Assembly (NCBI GenBank): GCA_964577305.1
Contig: CAZNYS010000005.1
Coordinates: 36,193-100,192, forward strand
Length of the DNA: 64,000 nucleotides
From: an uncultured Rikenellaceae bacterium
Lineage (GTDB): Bacteria > Bacteroidota > Bacteroidia > Bacteroidales > VadinHA17
Direction of reading: 5' to 3'
A program made the translations under genes and the position numbers. Under the pieces are notes generated by a model that was not told where the DNA came from, did no database searches, and worked only from the letters and a program-made list of their open reading frames with translations. Of the stretch, positions 1 to 58,724 are shown in pieces. Positions within the stretch are counted from its first letter, which is position 1. Each line of letters opens with the position of its first letter.

Positions 1-1479
1 GAGTATCCCATATAATTCCTTTCCATCTGCATCAAGGTATTTAACAAGCTCGCTCCTTGTAATCTTCTTATTTTCAATCCATGGATTAAGATCTGTAAGT
101 TGTTTTATATTTTCAAATGCAGGATCCGAAACATAGAAATCCTCAGGCTTGTCTCCATCTGAAAGACTATAGAATAACTTGCTTCCGTCTTCCGACATCT
201 GCCATGATGAATACAGGTTTGAGTCTTTGACGAGGTCCCTGAATTGCCTGGTTTCAAGATCATATTCCACAAGGCCTCTTTCCCATTTATCCCTTGCTGA
301 ATAGCTCATGTACCATGAGCTCCCATCAGGCTTCCAGTCAACGATCCTGAGCCTGGGACTCTCTTCCTCATCTTCAGGCAGTTCATACACAAGCTCCATA
401 TCTTTGGTATCAATATCGATCATCCAGTATCCTTTTTTTGTTGAAGCCAGCACATATTGACCATCGGGGTTCCACCTCATAACTGAAAATTTTGCTTCCG
501 AGGTATCTTTCTTAACTACTTCGGTTGTATCAGAGGATATCTTTACTGCTTCCTTATCAAACACTGATCTGATGAATACATGATCTGAATCACTATATGC
601 ATACTTTGTCTTCGTGTCATCCCAGCTGATACTGATCCTCTTTTCAGATTTTTCCTTAAGTGTATCCACCATTGATGGCGTATCCAGGTCAATCATATAC
701 AAACCATAATCAGTACCACCACGCCTGTCATAGCTGGTTTTTTTCGGAACAAATTCAACAAATACCATTTTATTACCTTCTTCTGTCAGGGAAACATTTG
801 AATACCTGCCCTCAGGAAGTAATCGTTCAACACTTCCTGAACTGATATCCACTTTTACAGGGATTGAAAGTGAAGAATGGTTTTGAATCTCATCCCATTT
901 GAGGAAGGGCCTTTTTGAGTCATATACTGTAATAGGTCCTACAGTTGCTTCCCTGAATAATGAATCACCTTTGTTCTTCCAGTTTTCTGACCTGAGAGAA
1001 ATAATAAGATATTCACTATCAGGTGTCCACTCAAGCAAAGAGTTGGAAGCTATATCAAGGTCTGTCTTCAACTTTATGCTTTTTGTCCTGCCATTTGCTG
1101 TATTATGTATATACAACCTGAACTCACCTTCTTCATATGCCAGGCATGCAAGATCGCTCCCTCCGGGGCTCCATTTTAAACCTCCCATTATCTTCCCCGT
1201 ATCAAATATCATATCAGTTGCATCTTCTTTTGTGTCAATAATCACAATCTCACTTGTATAGGGAGCTACATAATTTGGATCACCGTATCTTCCATGATCA
1301 ATATTAAGGCGGTCTTTCCGTGCCCTTATGACGCCCGCAACCAACTGTCCATCATCGGTGATATCCATTGCACTGAAAGATTTTACATTCAGGACATCCT
1401 GGGAAGTAAATGAAGTTTTTTGAGAATAAATCCAGGATGGAAATAGAATAATTAATATAAGTAGGGTAATTTTTTTCAT
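1..1479 (-). CDS. S9 family serine peptidase (prolyl oligopeptidase / acylaminoacyl-peptidase type), N-terminal beta-propeller part; 3' end runs off the window
   Basis: Absent from the ORF track because it has no in-window stop. Manual translation of the minus strand from ATG 1479..1477 gives an open 493-codon frame: MKKITLLILIILFPSWIYSQ...RWNPDGQYVLAS...VDWKPDGSSWYMSY...LTDLNPWIENKKITRSELVKYLDADGKELYGIL. It has a signal peptide, repeated W-x-PDG propeller motifs, and the linker typical just before the S9 catalytic domain. The + strand ORFs 660..845 and 899..1261 are shadow ORFs. Confidence 0.7.
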   Translation of the reverse strand, partial: MKKITLLILIILFPSWIYSQKTSFTSQDVLNVKSFSAMDITDDGQLVAGVIRARKDRLNIDHGRYGDPNYVAPYTSEIVIIDTKEDATDMIFDTGKIMGGLKWSPGGSDLACLAYEEGEFRLYIHNTANGRTKSIKLKTDLDIASNSLLEWTPDSEYLIISLRSENWKNKGDSLFREATVGPITVYDSKRPFLKWDEIQNHSSLSIPVKVDISSGSVERLLPEGRYSNVSLTEEGNKMVFVEFVPKKTSYDRRGGTDYGLYMIDLDTPSMVDTLKEKSEKRISISWDDTKTKYAYSDSDHVFIRSVFDKEAVKISSDTTEVVKKDTSEAKFSVMRWNPDGQYVLASTKKGYWMIDIDTKDMELVYELPEDEEESPRLRIVDWKPDGSSWYMSYSARDKWERGLVEYDLETRQFRDLVKDSNLYSSWQMSEDGSKLFYSLSDGDKPEDFYVSDPAFENIKQLTDLNPWIENKKITRSELVKYLDADGKELYGIL

Positions 1480-1666
1480 AGAGGTCGTTTATTTAGTTAG
1501 ACTTTGGATCAATATTTGTATACTTAATGTATACTTAAATGTAAATTTAACAATTATAGATCAGGATTAAGAACCCTGGAAACTTAATAATTGTTAATTA
1601 AGGCATAAAGAATGCTTTTTATGAGTATATTTGATAACTTTGAATAAATCAATAAATTATACAAAT

Positions 1667-2377
1667 ATGAACTGGAAAATATTATTTATTCTACCTTTCT
1701 TAATATTCATTTTTCAGAGCAGCACCTCACAGGAAAAAGAAGAAATGATAAAAATTAAAGGTTATGTTAAAACTGCCGATGACAAACCAGTGGCCAATGC
1801 TTTTATATTTATTGACGGTAAAATACTTGATACTAAAACACGTACAAATGGCAGGTTTAAAGTAAGTATACCTGAGAGTTCAGAAAAACTCTCTGTATAT
1901 ACAATTGATAACCGGTTTGCTGAACTTGACATAAATGGCAGGAAAAATTTCAGTGTAACCATTTCTGAACCCCTTAATACAAACAAAATAATATCAGATG
2001 GTCATACTGAAAAACTTATCGATCTTGGCTACTATAAGATCCAGGCTGATAAGCTTACATCCAGCGTAGGTATAGTTGAATCAAAAGAAGGTGAGGATAA
2101 CTACTACAATGATATATATGAGATGATCAAAGGTGAGCTGCCGGGGGTATCAGTAATTGGTAACAGTATTACCATTAGGGGACCAGGATCACTGAGATCA
2201 AGCAACGAACCTCTGTTCGTAGTTAACGGAATGCCTGTTAACTCAGTGACTCACATTTCACCTGCAGCTGTTGAATCAATATCAGTGCTGAGAGGAGCCT
2301 CTGCAAATATGTACGGATCCCGGGGTTCAAATGGTGTAATCGTGATACAATTGAAAAGCGGTAACAAAAAAGAATAA
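1667..2377 (+). CDS. Stand-alone CarboxypepD_reg-like + TonB-dependent-receptor plug (SusC N-terminus-like) protein, no beta-barrel
   Basis: ATG at 1667 (MNWKILFILPF signal). GYVKTADDKPVANAFIFIDG is a carboxypeptidase-regulatory-like fold motif. ELPGVSVIGNSITIRGPGSLRSSNEPLFVVNGMPV...VESISVLRGASANMYGSRGSNGVIVIQLK matches the N-terminal plug of SusC/TBDRs. The ORF stops right after the GVIxI..K motif. Confidence 0.7.
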   Translation: MNWKILFILPFLIFIFQSSTSQEKEEMIKIKGYVKTADDKPVANAFIFIDGKILDTKTRTNGRFKVSIPESSEKLSVYTIDNRFAELDINGRKNFSVTISEPLNTNKIISDGHTEKLIDLGYYKIQADKLTSSVGIVESKEGEDNYYNDIYEMIKGELPGVSVIGNSITIRGPGSLRSSNEPLFVVNGMPVNSVTHISPAAVESISVLRGASANMYGSRGSNGVIVIQLKSGNKKE

Positions 2378-2439
2378 CTCTGTATTAGCTGTTATTTTTA
2401 ATAGACTGTTTTAAATATATTATCATTGAATTTTCATAT

Positions 2440-3147
2440 ATGAAGAACAGAGCGACAATTATTATTCTTGCAGCCTTTCTGGTTGCATTTCAACCATCCA
2501 CACAAAAGGAACAGGAAACCAGGAAAACAGTAAGCGGGCATGTGAAAACGCAATCAGGCGACCCTGTAAAGAGGGCCTTGCTTTTTGTTGACGGTATGAG
2601 CATTAACACAAATACCAACAGGAAAGGAAATTATAAGATTAGAATAAGAAAGGGCACCAGGACTATTGCTGTATATTCCGATTCCCGTGGTAGCGAGGAA
2701 GCACAGTACACAGGTCAGGACACCATTAATTTTGTCCTTTCGGGTTCATTTAATGCCAGAGTATCCATTCCACAGGAAGAAGAGGAATATGTTGATATAG
2801 GATACGGAAAGGTTAAGAGAGATAACTTAACCACAAGCGTTGGCAGCGTAAGTAAAGAAAAGATCAATCAGCCACATTATACTGATATTTACACCATGAT
2901 CCAGGGTGAAGTACCAGGAGTTACTGTCTCAGGTAACACGATAATCATAAGAGGTATCCATACCATTAATGCCAGCAACGAGCCACTCTTTGTTGTAGAT
3001 GGTGTTATAGCTAGTTCTATCTCACATATCAATCCAATGGACGTCGAATCGATTGATATATTAAAAGGTGCCTCCGCAACAATCTACGGTGTCAATGGAG
3101 CCAATGGTGTAATTCTCATCAATACCAAAAAAGCCAGAAGGAAATAA
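2440..3147 (+). CDS. Second stand-alone CarboxypepD_reg-like + TBDR plug protein (tandem paralog of 1667..2377)
   Basis: Same architecture: GHVKTQSGDPVKRALLFVDG; EVPGVTVSGNTIIIRGIHTINASNEPLFVVDGV...VESIDILKGASATIYGVNGANGVILINTKK. It ends at the same domain boundary as its neighbour. Confidence 0.7.
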   Translation: MKNRATIIILAAFLVAFQPSTQKEQETRKTVSGHVKTQSGDPVKRALLFVDGMSINTNTNRKGNYKIRIRKGTRTIAVYSDSRGSEEAQYTGQDTINFVLSGSFNARVSIPQEEEEYVDIGYGKVKRDNLTTSVGSVSKEKINQPHYTDIYTMIQGEVPGVTVSGNTIIIRGIHTINASNEPLFVVDGVIASSISHINPMDVESIDILKGASATIYGVNGANGVILINTKKARRK

Positions 3148-3165
3148 TAAGCAAAAAAGGATACA

Positions 3166-3957
3166 TTGAAAAGACGCGCATTTATAACAACGGGAAGCCT
3201 CGGTGCACTCGGACTTAGCTTAAGTGATATTTCTGTTGCTGAAAGTGCAGACAACAAACCTGCTGACAGCCGAAAGAAAATACTGATTTCAGGTGGTGGA
3301 TTAAATAAATCCTTTATCACTTATCTTAATAAGCTTATAGGTAAAAAGAAGCCCCGTTTGTGTTTTCTGCCCACGGCAGCTGCTGATGACCCGCGGGTAG
3401 CAGTTTACTGGTACCAACTATGTGCAGATCTTGATGTGGTACCATATGTACAGAATATGTTCATCACAAGTTATTACATGAAAGAATCTTTTGAAGATGT
3501 TTTGCTGTCAATGGACGGAATAGTTGTGGGCGGTGGAAATACTCTTAATATGCTTGCCATATGGAAAGCACAGGGTATAGATAAGGTTCTTTACAAAGCC
3601 TGGGAAAAAGGAATAATCCTCTCCGGGGGTAGTGCCGGTTCATTATGCTGGTTCGAGGAAGGTACAACGGATTCAAGGCCAAAGGTGCTTACGAAAATAG
3701 AATGCCTGGGATTTCTTGAAGGGTCTCACTCTCCACATTATGATGGCGAAGAAGAACGAAGACCCAGGTATCATAATCTTATAAAATCAGGTGAACTGAA
3801 ACCTGGCTATGCGGTGGATAATAATGCTGCAATCTTATTTATTGACAACAAAGTAAGCGAGGTAATTGCAAGCGATAATCATAGTAATGCATATTATGTC
3901 GAATTAGTAGATGGAGAGATAAAGGAAACGGTTCTCAAACCGGATAAAATCCTGTAA
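3166..3957 (+). CDS. Peptidase S51 (dipeptidase E / cyanophycinase-like, class-I glutamine amidotransferase fold) with twin-arginine signal
   Basis: N-terminus MKRRAFITTGSLGALGLS is Tat-like. GIVVGGGNTLNMLAIW and LSGGSAGSLCWFEEG resemble the S51 nucleophile-elbow region. Confidence 0.6.
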   Translation: MKRRAFITTGSLGALGLSLSDISVAESADNKPADSRKKILISGGGLNKSFITYLNKLIGKKKPRLCFLPTAAADDPRVAVYWYQLCADLDVVPYVQNMFITSYYMKESFEDVLLSMDGIVVGGGNTLNMLAIWKAQGIDKVLYKAWEKGIILSGGSAGSLCWFEEGTTDSRPKVLTKIECLGFLEGSHSPHYDGEEERRPRYHNLIKSGELKPGYAVDNNAAILFIDNKVSEVIASDNHSNAYYVELVDGEIKETVLKPDKIL

Positions 3958-11216: not shown

Positions 11217-11226
11217 ACCACTCGAT

Positions 11227-11404
11227 GGGGCTGTCTCATAAGTCCTCTAACTACCCCCTCCTCGACCTTACGGTCGGGATACCCCTCCTTTCAAAAGGAG
11301 GGGAAATGGCTGATATACAATACTATAACTTTCTCCTCCTCTTTAGAGGAGGAGTACCCTGACCGACAGGTCAGGGGGAGGTGGTAGACTTATGAGACAG
11401 CCCC
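11227..11404. repeat. 178-bp nested palindromic element: 18-bp perfect outer stem enclosing four hairpins
   Basis: The outer stem is ggggctgtctcataagtc (11227..11244) pairing with gacttatgagacagcccc (11387..11404). The inner hairpins are at 11263..11276 (cgacc/ggtcg), 11282..11303 (cccctcctt/aaggagggg), 11333..11354 (ctcctcctc/gaggaggag) and 11357..11376 (ccctgacc/ggtcaggg). The element fills the convergent intergenic space. Confidence 0.8.
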
Positions 11405-11417
11405 AATCAAGATGAGA

Positions 11418-41409: not shown

Positions 41410-41672
41410 AACCACTTTTCAGTGGTTTTTGTGATATCTCATGCGGGGCGAATCATTCATAAAGGGCGCGGAAAAATTCATCACCCTTCGATTGTCTTTA
41501 TATGTTATATAACTTCCTTTTCACCCCTGCCGGGGTGTAATGGCTTTAAGGACACCGATTTATCCACAGGTGTGACTGTGGCTATTGCTTTTTACCACCT
41601 CCGGTGGTATTGATAACAAAATAAGCCCCGCGAGGGGCTTAAAAACAATAGCCCAAGTTTCACACCGTGGTT
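41410..41672. repeat. Repeat-family copy A: conserved ~78-nt core plus a unique GC-rich multi-stem 3' domain
   Basis: The core at 41414..41492 matches copy B with 3 mismatches and copy C with 1 mismatch, by manual alignment. Downstream there are nested stems. 41564..41575 pairs with 41660..41670, and 41580..41587 pairs with 41646..41653. A hairpin lies at 41595..41607. A second hairpin at 41623..41640 has a GCGA loop. Confidence 0.8.
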
Positions 41673-41732
41673 AAAAATCAAAAAATACTACCAGTTGTAC
41701 TTTAATATTGCTATTGACCTCATAATTAGCAA

Positions 41733-55436: not shown

Positions 55437-55825
55437 GTCACACATCATTAGTAGACAGGTGGCATTCAGCACCCCTTTTCAGTGGTTTTTGTGATATTAT
55501 AGTCGAGATAAACCATCTCAAAAGGGCCTGGAAAATACAGCACCCTTCGACTCTTCGGACCTTCACTCTGTGTAGGTCCTCAGGCTCAGGGACCCCTGGT
55601 CTGTGTAAATATTTTTGTTCCGTGCCAGTTTAAAGTTGCATCGCTGCCAAATAACCTCGTCCCTCTTTTAGATTAACGATTTTAGGTATATTCTTCCACT
55701 CATGCAGGTTAGGTCCACCAGCCAAAGGTCCCTGAGCTAAACGGGTAATAAAGTCAACCCATTGCATAAAGCCATAAAACTACAAGTAGCCAGTCAGAGC
55801 GGTAACTAATAGTCGAAGGGTGAGG
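55437..55825. repeat. Repeat-family copy D: diverged core, IR-bracketed segment inverted relative to copy B, 12-bp long-range stem
   Basis: The core lies at 55470..55552. IR-L is ctcagggacc (55585..55594) and IR-R is ggtccctgag (55727..55736). cacccttcgact (55541..55552) is perfectly complementary to agtcgaagggtg (55811..55822). Confidence 0.8.
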
Positions 55826-55937
55826 CTATTTGAGATAAATAATAATGATTTTTACAATCACTATTAATCCCACAGTTTATTAATGGAGCCATTCGCGTTA
55901 ATTCGTCCTAATCAGCGCTAATTCGTGTAACCTGGAA

Positions 55938-56051
55938 TTACCTCGGCCTCCGGCCTTCGAAAAACTCAGTTACCCAATCGTCATGTTTGTTGTCTTTCTG
56001 GCGGTAGCTGATGAAGATGTCGTAATTGTATCCTTCGATTATACTTGCCAT
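55938..56051 (-). pseudogene. Orphan 5' fragment of a TIR-domain gene (37 codons then stop)
   Basis: Manual translation gives MASIIEGYNYDIFISYRQKDNKHDDWVTEFFEGRRPR*. The intact gene at 55394 begins MASLIPGYEYDIFVSYRQKDNKHDGWVTRFVNN. The fragment's ATG lies 3 nt after the stop of the upstream TPR gene. Confidence 0.7.
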
Positions 56052-56054
56052 TTT

Positions 56055-57965: not shown

Positions 57966-58023
57966 TTTATGTTGGATTGGATATGTAAATATAAATCAAG
58001 CAATTATCAAAGTCAAATAAAAA

Positions 58024-58090
58024 GCCACCCATCAATTAAGACAGGTGGCATTCAGCCCCCCTTTTCAGTGGTTTTTGTGATATTATATCA
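58024..58090. repeat. Repeat-family copy E (shortest: hairpin + first ~25 nt of core)
   Basis: gccacccatcaattaagacaggtggcattcagccccccttttcagtggtttttgtgatattat shares the hairpin and the 5' core with copies C and D. Confidence 0.7.
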
Positions 58091-58271: not shown

Positions 58272-58724
58272 TTAATGTTCGCTTTTGGGGTTAGCAACAG
58301 CCTTTTTTGCTTCTTCTAGGTGGAGATCTAATTCGTAGAAATATATAGGTTTTAAAGAATCAGCTTTCACAAGGAATTTAAGTGCTTCTATATATTTGCC
58401 CTGCTTGAATAATCCCCAGCCTTTGGTGTCAAGATAAATGTAATTATCAGGTTGGCTTTCAAGAGCCCTATTTATAAGCTCCATTCCTTCATCGATATTC
58501 CTTTCATTATCGATCAGGAAATAAGCCAGTCTACTATACCTGCCTGGCTTTTCAGGTTCTAATGTGAGAGCTTTACGATAATATTCCTCTGCTTTATCAA
58601 GATTACCTGCCTCAGAATAAATTCTTGCAAGGTTTGACGCAATGTTGGCCTCAGGTATAGAATTTTCTATTTGGATAGATTTATATTTTTCAATATATTC
58701 ATTTTTACCTCCTGTTTTACACAA
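58272..58724 (-). pseudogene. 5'-truncated TPR paralog (matches only the C-terminal ~140 aa of 56055..57965)
   Basis: EYIEKY...AEEYYRKALTLEPE...DNYIYLDTKGWGLFKQGKY...LEEAKKAVANPKSE is colinear with EYIEKY...AEEYYHQALSLEPE...DNYLYLDTKGWGLYKQGKY...LEAAKKAVADQKSE. There is no membrane or N-terminal part. Confidence 0.65.

Follow-up and report, generated by a model that had tools for sequence, protein, structure and literature searches.

Oppositely oriented segments in a Rikenellaceae contig: an apparent old rearrangement in hairpin repeat DNA resembling the targets of small GIY-YIG nucleases

Two short intergenic segments, B (51846-51999) and D (55585-55736), are found in a 64,000-nucleotide (nt) stretch of DNA from an uncultured Rikenellaceae bacterium of the Bacteroidota (GenBank assembly GCA_964577305.1, contig CAZNYS010000005.1, positions 36,193 to 100,192 of the forward strand). 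This whole stretch is referred to as the window, and positions are numbered from its first letter. Both segments are bounded by exact CTCAGGGACC/GGTCCCTGAG inverted repeats, and an earlier note on this DNA took them for an invertible switch upstream of a TIR gene. However, the B/D segment looks like an old rearrangement in repeat DNA and not like a working gene switch. It is a non-autonomous member of an Ssn-like repeat family that is associated with GIY-YIG nucleases. B and D are probably nuclease-less copies of a nested palindromic element whose hairpins are recognised in the manner of Ssn; a single inversion mediated by the arms of the element would have set the two copies in opposite orientations, which are now fixed, with no switch involved.

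Orientation of the two segments

The strings and coordinates that the earlier note gave for B and D all agree with the window sequence. The repeats have 10 exact bases and match at 13-14 of 15 positions on either side of a short intergenic segment, and the arrangement CTCAGGGACC-N120-150-GGTCCCTGAG occurs exactly twice in the window, compared with no occurrence in 100 shuffles. The 11-mer CGATGCAACTT lies at 51941-51951 in B and its complement at 55633-55643 in D, as the note had it. That the interiors are opposite is borne out by global alignment, in which B scored 54 against the reverse complement of D and 5 against D in the forward direction; for the interiors alone the scores were 14 and 3, respectively, and the best of 500 shuffles reached 12. 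A repeat search returned two inverted matches between the copies, one pairing 51941-52000 with 55584-55643 (60 nt, 70%) and the other pairing 51846-51878 with 55704-55736 (33 nt, 88%). The overall identity of B and D is 66%.

How much of the element has been turned around? The flanks had been described as colinear in the two copies. This is true of the left flank, which is a common core repeat present five times in the window (copies A to E, at about 41393, 51730, 52847, 55453 and 58039). The right flanks are only weakly colinear because the two flanks of the element are themselves palindromic (CACCCTTCGA ... TCGAAGGGTG). Comparison with relatives distinguishes two types of flank: in F1, a variable hairpin splits the repeat unit (CACCCTTCGATGCG-[hairpin]-CTTA-CTCAGGGACC), and in F2 a 75-nt insert takes the place of this hairpin. 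The left flank of B was typed as F1 (z = 5.7), the left flank of D as weakly F1 (z = 3.2) and the right flank of D as F2 (z = 6-7); the right flank of B is untypable (z <= 1.5). A flip of the whole element at the outer CACCCTTCGA repeats was excluded because the left flank of B does not match the right flank of D (z = -1.1). The flank typing favours a flip bounded by the inner repeats. Repeat matches, alignments and flank typing together uphold the proposal that the interior was inverted at least once relative to the core and the F1 flank.

Do both orientations coexist at one locus? At the level of assemblies they do not: all assemblies examined have a single orientation. An exact-protein look-up in independent metagenome assemblies of the Joint Genome Institute found the D region (55395-56054) to be identical to the window in six samples; copy B was identical in the same six and in a seventh sample, L101, which covers B only. 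A further marker is provided by a spurious open reading frame (ORF) of 45 amino acids (aa) across the right junction of D, which indicates an unflipped D because a flip would destroy it. Both this junction ORF and the neighbouring 796-aa gene are indexed in 30 collection blocks; for the ORF, 23 contigs were read.

The idea of a working invertible promoter switch for the TIR-like gene is accordingly not supported, on the grounds of fixed orientation, a copy B without a target gene, a motif at chance level and generic repeats. Copy B is flanked by two convergent genes, whose stop codons lie at 51618 and 52065, and therefore has nothing to switch. The -7-like motif reported in D, TATTTTTG, is indeed present at 55610-55617, and the family alignment supports the remark that it is not conserved, since TAnnTTTG is missing from B and from the relatives. 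This motif occurs 59 times in the window, compared with 69 expected, and once in D; a promoter facing the gene from within the segment is thus not supported. No recombinase domain was found by Pfam in the approximately 39 window ORFs scanned, in line with the earlier note. The TIR label itself is weak: the N-terminal 165 aa of the protein give a weak TIR_2 match (E = 0.016; 16 bits, cutoff 28), whereas the full protein matches only TPR families in Pfam.

The repeat unit and its link to small GIY-YIG nucleases

What had been read as inverted repeats are the inner ends of two head-to-head units, each of the form CCCTTCGA-(4-6 nt or variable hairpin)-CTCAGGGACC. A scan for the repeat pattern with one genome per species found 97 loci in many phyla, compared with a chance expectation that is roughly estimated at about 17 loci. 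The source genome of the window is outside this species-representative set, where the only close match is a fragment of a Rikenellaceae metagenome-assembled genome (MAG), L092 (loci are denoted by L numbers). The pattern is strongly multi-copy in some genomes, among them two Bacteroidales MAGs, a Tessaracoccus MAG, and Plantibacter and Microbacterium species. Sequence conservation reaches beyond the pattern that was searched, the 10-mer being the terminus of a longer unit. When counted as CCTTCG-N4-9-CTCAGGGACC, this extended unit makes up 74 of 102 sites in Plantibacter, 7 of 8 in Binatia and 6 of 7 in Prolixibacteraceae; in the two Bacteroidales MAGs, its share is 18 of 19 and 27 of 30.

The units are arranged in tandem arrays or in head-to-head pairs around a family-specific loop, which gives nested palindromes. 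Nested palindromic mosaics of this kind are found in Bacteroidota, Actinomycetota, Binatia, Sericytochromatia, Spirochaetota and Alphaproteobacteria. The loop between the inner ends measures 120-160 nt. The stems of the F1 hairpin are wholly different among copies while the hairpin itself is kept, and some inserts are nested units. One MAG carries ten near-identical copies, whose perfect arms measure 26 nt and whose loop measures 129 nt; every copy has the same orientation relative to its flanks. Rfam gave nothing relevant, either at gathering thresholds for the whole window or at E <= 10 for 51600-56000, and full-text literature searches with the repeat and unit sequences found no relevant paper.

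Which genes accompany the units? When the ORFs near units were clustered, the sole recurrent cross-phylum family with a recognisable domain proved to be a GIY-YIG protein of about 98 aa (Pfam PF01541, E = 7e-21 for the 98-aa protein). Searches with tblastn located such genes within about 100 nt of units in four metagenomic loci of the B/D family (L103, L119 with two genes, L120, and L107 with a fragment) and, for other phyla, in a Bacteroidota MAG (L018), a Sericytochromatia MAG (L033) and Microbacterium (L047). A single-domain GIY-YIG gene flanked by repeats is present in L103, L119-L123, L018, L033, L047, L124-L126, L139 and L140. Homologues with like units on their flanks were found in the cultured organisms Aquimarina rubra, Thermospira aquatica, Flavimarina, Sphingomonas parapaucimobilis and Methylobacterium bullatum. 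The outer stem of the unit covaries: CCCT/AGGG is replaced by CGCC/GGCG in Thermospira, where the unit reads GGTC-GCC-GAGTA[hairpin]GTATCGA-GGC-GACC. Alphaproteobacterial homologues of the GIY-YIG protein are closer (E = 2e-20) than YazA of B. subtilis (E = 9e-10), and NCBIfam holds no model for the unit-linked proteins.

The link is tightest in two Bacteroidales MAGs, in which close homologues (83-85% identity) form tandem arrays with a period of 693 bp. Each period consists of a leader, the GIY-YIG gene, F1, CTCAGGGACC, the loop in the order E2-to-E1 (E1 and E2 being its two halves), GGTCCCTGAG and F2. A third MAG (L123) has a single gene and element copy in the same order, and the canonical loop order was taken from L121 and L123. 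The arrays of gene and element are in L121 (within 1-3600) and L122 (GCA_041686075.1 and GCA_046482335.1). L121 has three GIY-YIG genes in 3.5 kb, two of which make up the 693-bp tandem, beside a gene for a TPR protein; it is unusual for a nuclease gene to be amplified in tandem along with its repeats.

Two further observations concern the coding and the loop sequences at these loci. In the Sericytochromatia MAG (L033, 5750-6408), the stop-to-stop frame with the GIY-YIG domain continues through an array of GGTCCCTGAG and acquires a repetitive 'QKVPEPS' tail; read-through of unit arrays is probably the reason why annotated GIY-YIG proteins and hypothetical proteins can have odd tails of low complexity. 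The best-conserved blocks of the loop, TTGACA-N16-TAATAG, lie in the E1 half (for example in L108, L104 and L121) and are degenerate in the window at 51895-51915 of B; on their strand they point out through the repeat toward the GIY-YIG start. They might be an outward promoter or a protein-binding site. As points against an outward promoter of the GIY-YIG gene, a consensus scan did not call it in L121, the sequence is degenerate in B and D, and the promoter consensus of Bacteroidota differs.

Among characterised systems, the closest likeness is to Ssn proteins. These 94-aa single-domain GIY-YIG nucleases have an oriented hairpin repeat (NTS/SRM) as their target, to which they bind only when it is single-stranded DNA (Chenal et al. 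2025, Nat Commun 16:2388, PMC11893778). They cut a few nucleotides upstream of the repeat, their genes are flanked by repeats, and the loop of the hairpin can be removed or extended with activity kept (PMC11893778). Similarly, the relatives of B and D have a GIY-YIG protein of about 94-100 aa with oriented hairpin repeats on both sides, and the repeats are multi-copy and clustered in intergenic DNA. An xGTC-type tag stands by the stem in both cases (GGTC-CCCT...AGGG here, CGTC-ATTCCCGCG...CGCGGGAAT in NTS), and the conserved Y, Y and E at 5/7, 16/17 and 64 are the counterparts of Y6, Y17 and E64 in SsnA. In contrast to Ssn repeats, the stem here has 4-7 bp and encloses a conserved TCGA...CTC internal loop, often with a nested variable hairpin or nested units, and the units occur in head-to-head pairs with loops of 20-160 nt. 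By analogy, the system may be regarded as resembling Ssn/SRM in the way it works, and it is not filed as a member of the Ssn clade (cd10448).

Another point of comparison is offered by REP sequences. CGTC-tagged REPs, for which no enzyme was known, are found chiefly as head-to-head dimers (Di Nocera 2013, PMC3733652). The units share with REP dimers, BIMEs and REPIN-RAYT systems the character of short tagged palindromes placed head to head, sometimes with DNA inserted between the partners (PMC3733652; Bertels & Rainey 2011, PMC3116915), and they form mosaic clusters in intergenic DNA or 3' untranslated regions (3'-UTRs). As in REPIN-RAYT systems, the gene of the associated enzyme is single-copy and flanked by repeats. 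However, membership among REPs would require a GTAG- or CGTC-tagged palindrome with a stem of 5-13 bp and a short loop. The tag here is GGTC, and the outer stem of 4-7 bp encloses a loop of at least 11 nt or a nested hairpin, whereas REP families have a stem of 8-9 bp and a loop of 4-5 nt (PMC3733652). Moreover, the associated gene encodes a GIY-YIG nuclease and not a Y1 (RAYT) transposase, and the halves of the loop, unlike those of a REPIN, do not form a palindrome.

Origin of the inversion and competing explanations

How could two copies of such an element come to be opposite without a switch? By analogy with Ssn, it is most likely that unit hairpins in single-stranded DNA are recognised by the small GIY-YIG nuclease, and the repeats would afterwards be maintained and spread in intergenic regions, either as selfish DNA or in domesticated form. 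Recombination or template switching may occasionally invert the loop that lies between the inverted arms, and gene conversion between the arms would homogenise the flanks. One inversion in the ancestor of the B/L116 lineage would leave B and D in opposite orientations, and both loci would by now be fixed.

The distribution of arrangements among relatives is consistent with this scheme. The combination of F1 by E1 with F2 by E2 is found only in B and L116. When the family interiors were aligned and placed in a neighbour-joining tree, these two came out as sisters. L106b was assigned to the same clade by its 97% identity to L116, and the E2-side flank of B is untypable. The order seen beside GIY-YIG genes is kept in D, in the L104 group, and in L108, L114 (7623), L119 and L121 of the 181-nt class. 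A single old inversion suffices because the flipped state is limited to one clade (B, L116 and L106b).

The flank combinations found are F1/F1 (L120), F2/F2 (L123), F1-E2/F2-E1 (L121) and F1-E1/F2-E2 (L116); F1 also stands on both sides in L107 and in the second copy of L114, and half-elements, made up of a flank and the E1 half, are duplicated in tandem. The presence of all flank combinations together with half-element duplication is the pattern that would be expected from conversion and crossover between palindrome arms. Flank type was dropped as a lone marker of orientation, as L120 and L123 show arm conversion, and orientation was called from flank type in combination with the core, the place of the GIY-YIG gene and z-score typing.

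Inversions of small hairpin loops that lie between short inverted repeats are well documented in plastid DNA; they are known mainly from organelle genomes and have loops of a few to tens of nucleotides. The proposed history of B and D is similar in that the flip is sporadic, has no dedicated recombinase and is then inherited as a fixed state. It differs from the plastid case in that the arms appear, by analogy, to be recognition units of a repeat family, and the nuclease may raise the rate of inversion.

Relatives also differ in where the element is present. In L104, the TPR protein is 86% identical to the 636-aa TPR protein of the window, and the first 199 residues of the TIR-like protein are also 86% identical. 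There, an element lies upstream of the TPR gene, where the window has only a core copy truncated after GATATTATA, and no element is found at the site of D. The first 93 bp of the TIR-like gene are duplicated in the window with 80% identity (55962-56054 and 55305-55397), and the upstream copy lies directly against the stop of the 636-aa TPR gene, exactly as the intact gene does in L104. Because this relic sits like the intact gene of L104, the present TIR-like gene can be said to have gained a new 5' end along with core D and the element; the D block and the new 5' end lie between the relic and the present gene. Nearby, a 150-aa TPR ORF (58272-58724) corresponds, as a paralogous fragment, to the C-terminal end of the 636-aa TPR protein (repeats D4 and D6), and duplicated pieces of TPR genes form a patchwork in this region with core copies between them.

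Several observations weigh against the proposed history. The interior of the element is 58-87% conserved between distinct family members, which could mean that it has a function of its own. No GIY-YIG gene was found by tblastn within the 64-kb window, and for this reason B and D are regarded as non-autonomous copies. The best solved relatives of the unit-linked proteins in the PDB are UPF0213 proteins (E = 4e-14). The published SRM motif, HGTCWYN(0-2)YYVSBRHN(0-5)WNVSBRGN(0-2)RNCYNB, has 0 matches in the window and in all GIY-YIG loci, and a positive control found the canonical NTS. Finally, assemblies are consensus sequences and would hide a minority subpopulation of flipped molecules.

A larger role for the nuclease can be imagined. 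The units might make up an undescribed cross-phylum class in which the nuclease acts beyond the restriction of single-stranded DNA. Its nicks at head-to-head units would drive rearrangement at unit boundaries, whereby loops are inverted, arms converted, half-elements duplicated in tandem and units inserted into the loops of others. If so, a GIY-YIG nuclease would be the engine of a mobile or invertible DNA element, for which there is, to our knowledge, no characterised bacterial precedent. This extension is unlikely.

Could the conserved object be an RNA? If the element acted, for example, as a terminator, as a small RNA or to stabilise a 3'-UTR, its repeats and the outer pair CACCCTTCGA/TCGAAGGGTG would form helices, and the orientation of the loop would be irrelevant. 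Nested helices are predicted for both copies (z = -2.5 for D and -2.1 for B), variable hairpins stand between conserved motifs, and B and core copy C lie in the 3' regions of genes, like REP elements. However, the predicted folds are just modestly better than those of shuffles, and the Rfam search down to E <= 10 was empty. Relative to neighbouring genes, the elements face either way, and inversion of the loop would turn its RNA into the complementary sequence. Units are found on either strand and also paired head to head, as would suit recognition in the form of DNA, and SsnA does not bind RNA (PMC11893778). A structured RNA is therefore an improbable explanation.

Transposition has a similarly small chance of being correct. 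Here, a transposase would move the repeat-bounded 150-bp segment, and B and D would be independent insertions, in either orientation, into a preferred target in the core-associated unit. The terminal inverted repeats, the small size, the occurrence of either orientation, the difference in presence or absence between relatives and the TTA/TAA beside the repeats in L120 would all be compatible with this. By contrast, no target-site duplication in the form of flanking direct repeats is found at B or D, the apparent terminal repeats belong to a larger unit, which is also seen in tandem arrays that lack any interior, and half-elements are found in tandem. The sole gene that recurs next to the elements encodes the GIY-YIG nuclease, no transposase recurs near them, and the window has just two copies with an identity of 66%. 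With neither a target-site duplication at B and D nor a recurrent adjacent transposase, the segments do not qualify as miniature inverted-repeat transposable elements derived from DDE transposons.

The Bacteroidales invertons described by Jiang and colleagues in 2019 with PhaseFinder are reportedly invertible promoters. B and D recall them in having short inverted repeats around intergenic DNA of 100-500 bp and two orientations among copies. They differ in that orientation polymorphism within a population is not seen in assemblies, no invertase was found among the window ORFs, a promoter is unsupported, copy B has no gene to regulate and the repeats are a generic unit shared across phyla. In an active inverton, a site-specific recombinase encoded elsewhere would flip the segment between the CTCAGGGACC repeats, so that a promoter would either face the TIR-like/TPR gene or point away from it; the gene would then have been under a phase switch. 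Such an inverton would suit the exact 10-bp repeats around about 130 bp, the interiors opposed relative to the shared core and F1 flank, and the position of D upstream of a gene with one TAnnTTTG inside, but it is very improbable in view of the single orientation in all assemblies, the equal block counts of the junction ORF and its neighbour, the restriction of the flipped state to one clade and the ten copies of a single orientation in one MAG.

Features of the window and wider significance

The features that belong to the core repeats and to segments B and D are listed in Table 1. Three other places in the window deserve mention. A series of short hairpins rich in GC, at 41500-41680 downstream of core copy A (CACCCCTGCCGGGGTG, CCACCTCCGGTGG, GCCCCGCGAGGGGC), recurs at 75% identity by the element in the Rikenellaceae fragment L092 (1860-1992); these look like a second, unrelated family of hairpin repeats. 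Just after a GH18 gene, a 32-nt inverted repeat (11226-11257 and 11374-11405, 84% complementary) surrounds 116 nt and forms a further intergenic element of palindromic type. Two neighbouring ORFs of about 240 aa (1631-2377 and 2440-3147) each have the Plug domain of a TonB-dependent receptor without a barrel, and may be gene fragments or a frameshifted receptor.

Table 1. Coordinates of core repeats, elements and associated genes in the window
Feature	Position	Strand	Basis or remark
Core copy A, ends in CACCCTTCGA, without repeat-bounded segment	41356..41491	+	
Core repeat, copy B, upstream of element	51693..51818	+	homologous to copies A, C, D and E; repeat families D1-D3
Outer half-unit CACCCTTCGA of copy B	51819..51828	+	motif census: 5 window copies, all at elements
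F1 insert of copy B (TGCGCCCTTCGGGCTTA), short hairpin between unit halves	51829..51845	+	z = 5.7 against F1 of L121; fold with CCCT/AGGG outer stem and GCCC/GGGC inner stem
Left inverted repeat of B, CTCAGGGACCTTTGG (inner end CTCAGGGACC of left unit + TTTGG)	51846..51860	+	
Interior (loop) of B, E1-to-E2, flipped relative to arrangement beside GIY-YIG genes	51861..51984	+	family alignment, identity matrix, tree
Right inverted repeat of B, CCCAAGGTCCCTGAG (CCCAA + GGTCCCTGAG)	51985..51999	+	
Degenerate right flank of B, ends in TCGAAG, outer half-unit remnant	52000..52036	+	sequence; z <= 1.5
Core copy C with degenerate F1 unit (…CCTTCGGGCTTCCTCGAGATGAAG), without repeat-bounded segment	52810..52965	+	in 3' region of TIR-like/TPR gene
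796-aa gene with TPR repeats, downstream of D	53004..55394	-	Pfam TPR families
Core repeat, copy D, directly upstream of TIR-like/TPR gene start (55394, minus strand)	55416..55540	+	repeat search, alignment
Outer half-unit CACCCTTCGA of copy D, pairs with 55813-55822	55541..55550	+	fold, motif census
F1-like insert of D, hairpin GGACCT...AGGTCC	55551..55584	+	fold; weakly F1, z = 3.2
Left inverted repeat of D, CTCAGGGACCCCTGG (CTCAGGGACC + CCTGG)	55585..55599	+	
Interior (loop) of D, E2-to-E1, the order downstream of GIY-YIG genes in relatives	55600..55721	+	
Spurious 45-aa ORF across right junction of D, marker of unflipped state	55630..55767	-	translation
Right inverted repeat of D, CCAAAGGTCCCTGAG (CCAAA + GGTCCCTGAG)	55722..55736	+	
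F2 flank of D, 76-nt module homologous to F2 of L121 and L105	55737..55812	+	z = 6.2 and 6.9
Outer half-unit TCGAAGGGTG of D, closes nested palindrome	55813..55822	+	
Relic of original TIR-like gene 5' end, 93 bp	55962..56054	-	repeat D5, 80% identity; alignment against L104; tblastn
Core copy E, truncated after GATATTATA	58002..58087	+	orthologous site in L104 has full element

What do these repeats mean beyond the window? A 22-nt unit is common to at least six bacterial phyla, where it forms nested palindromes and lies beside genes for small GIY-YIG nucleases. This would extend the 2025 discovery of Ssn and NTS to a class of repeats that is missed by the published search motif. The pairing of nuclease and unit could be tested in cultured organisms, such as Aquimarina rubra, Thermospira aquatica and Flavimarina. 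Scans for invertons that rely on inverted repeats will take these elements as false positives, both in Bacteroidota and in other phyla.

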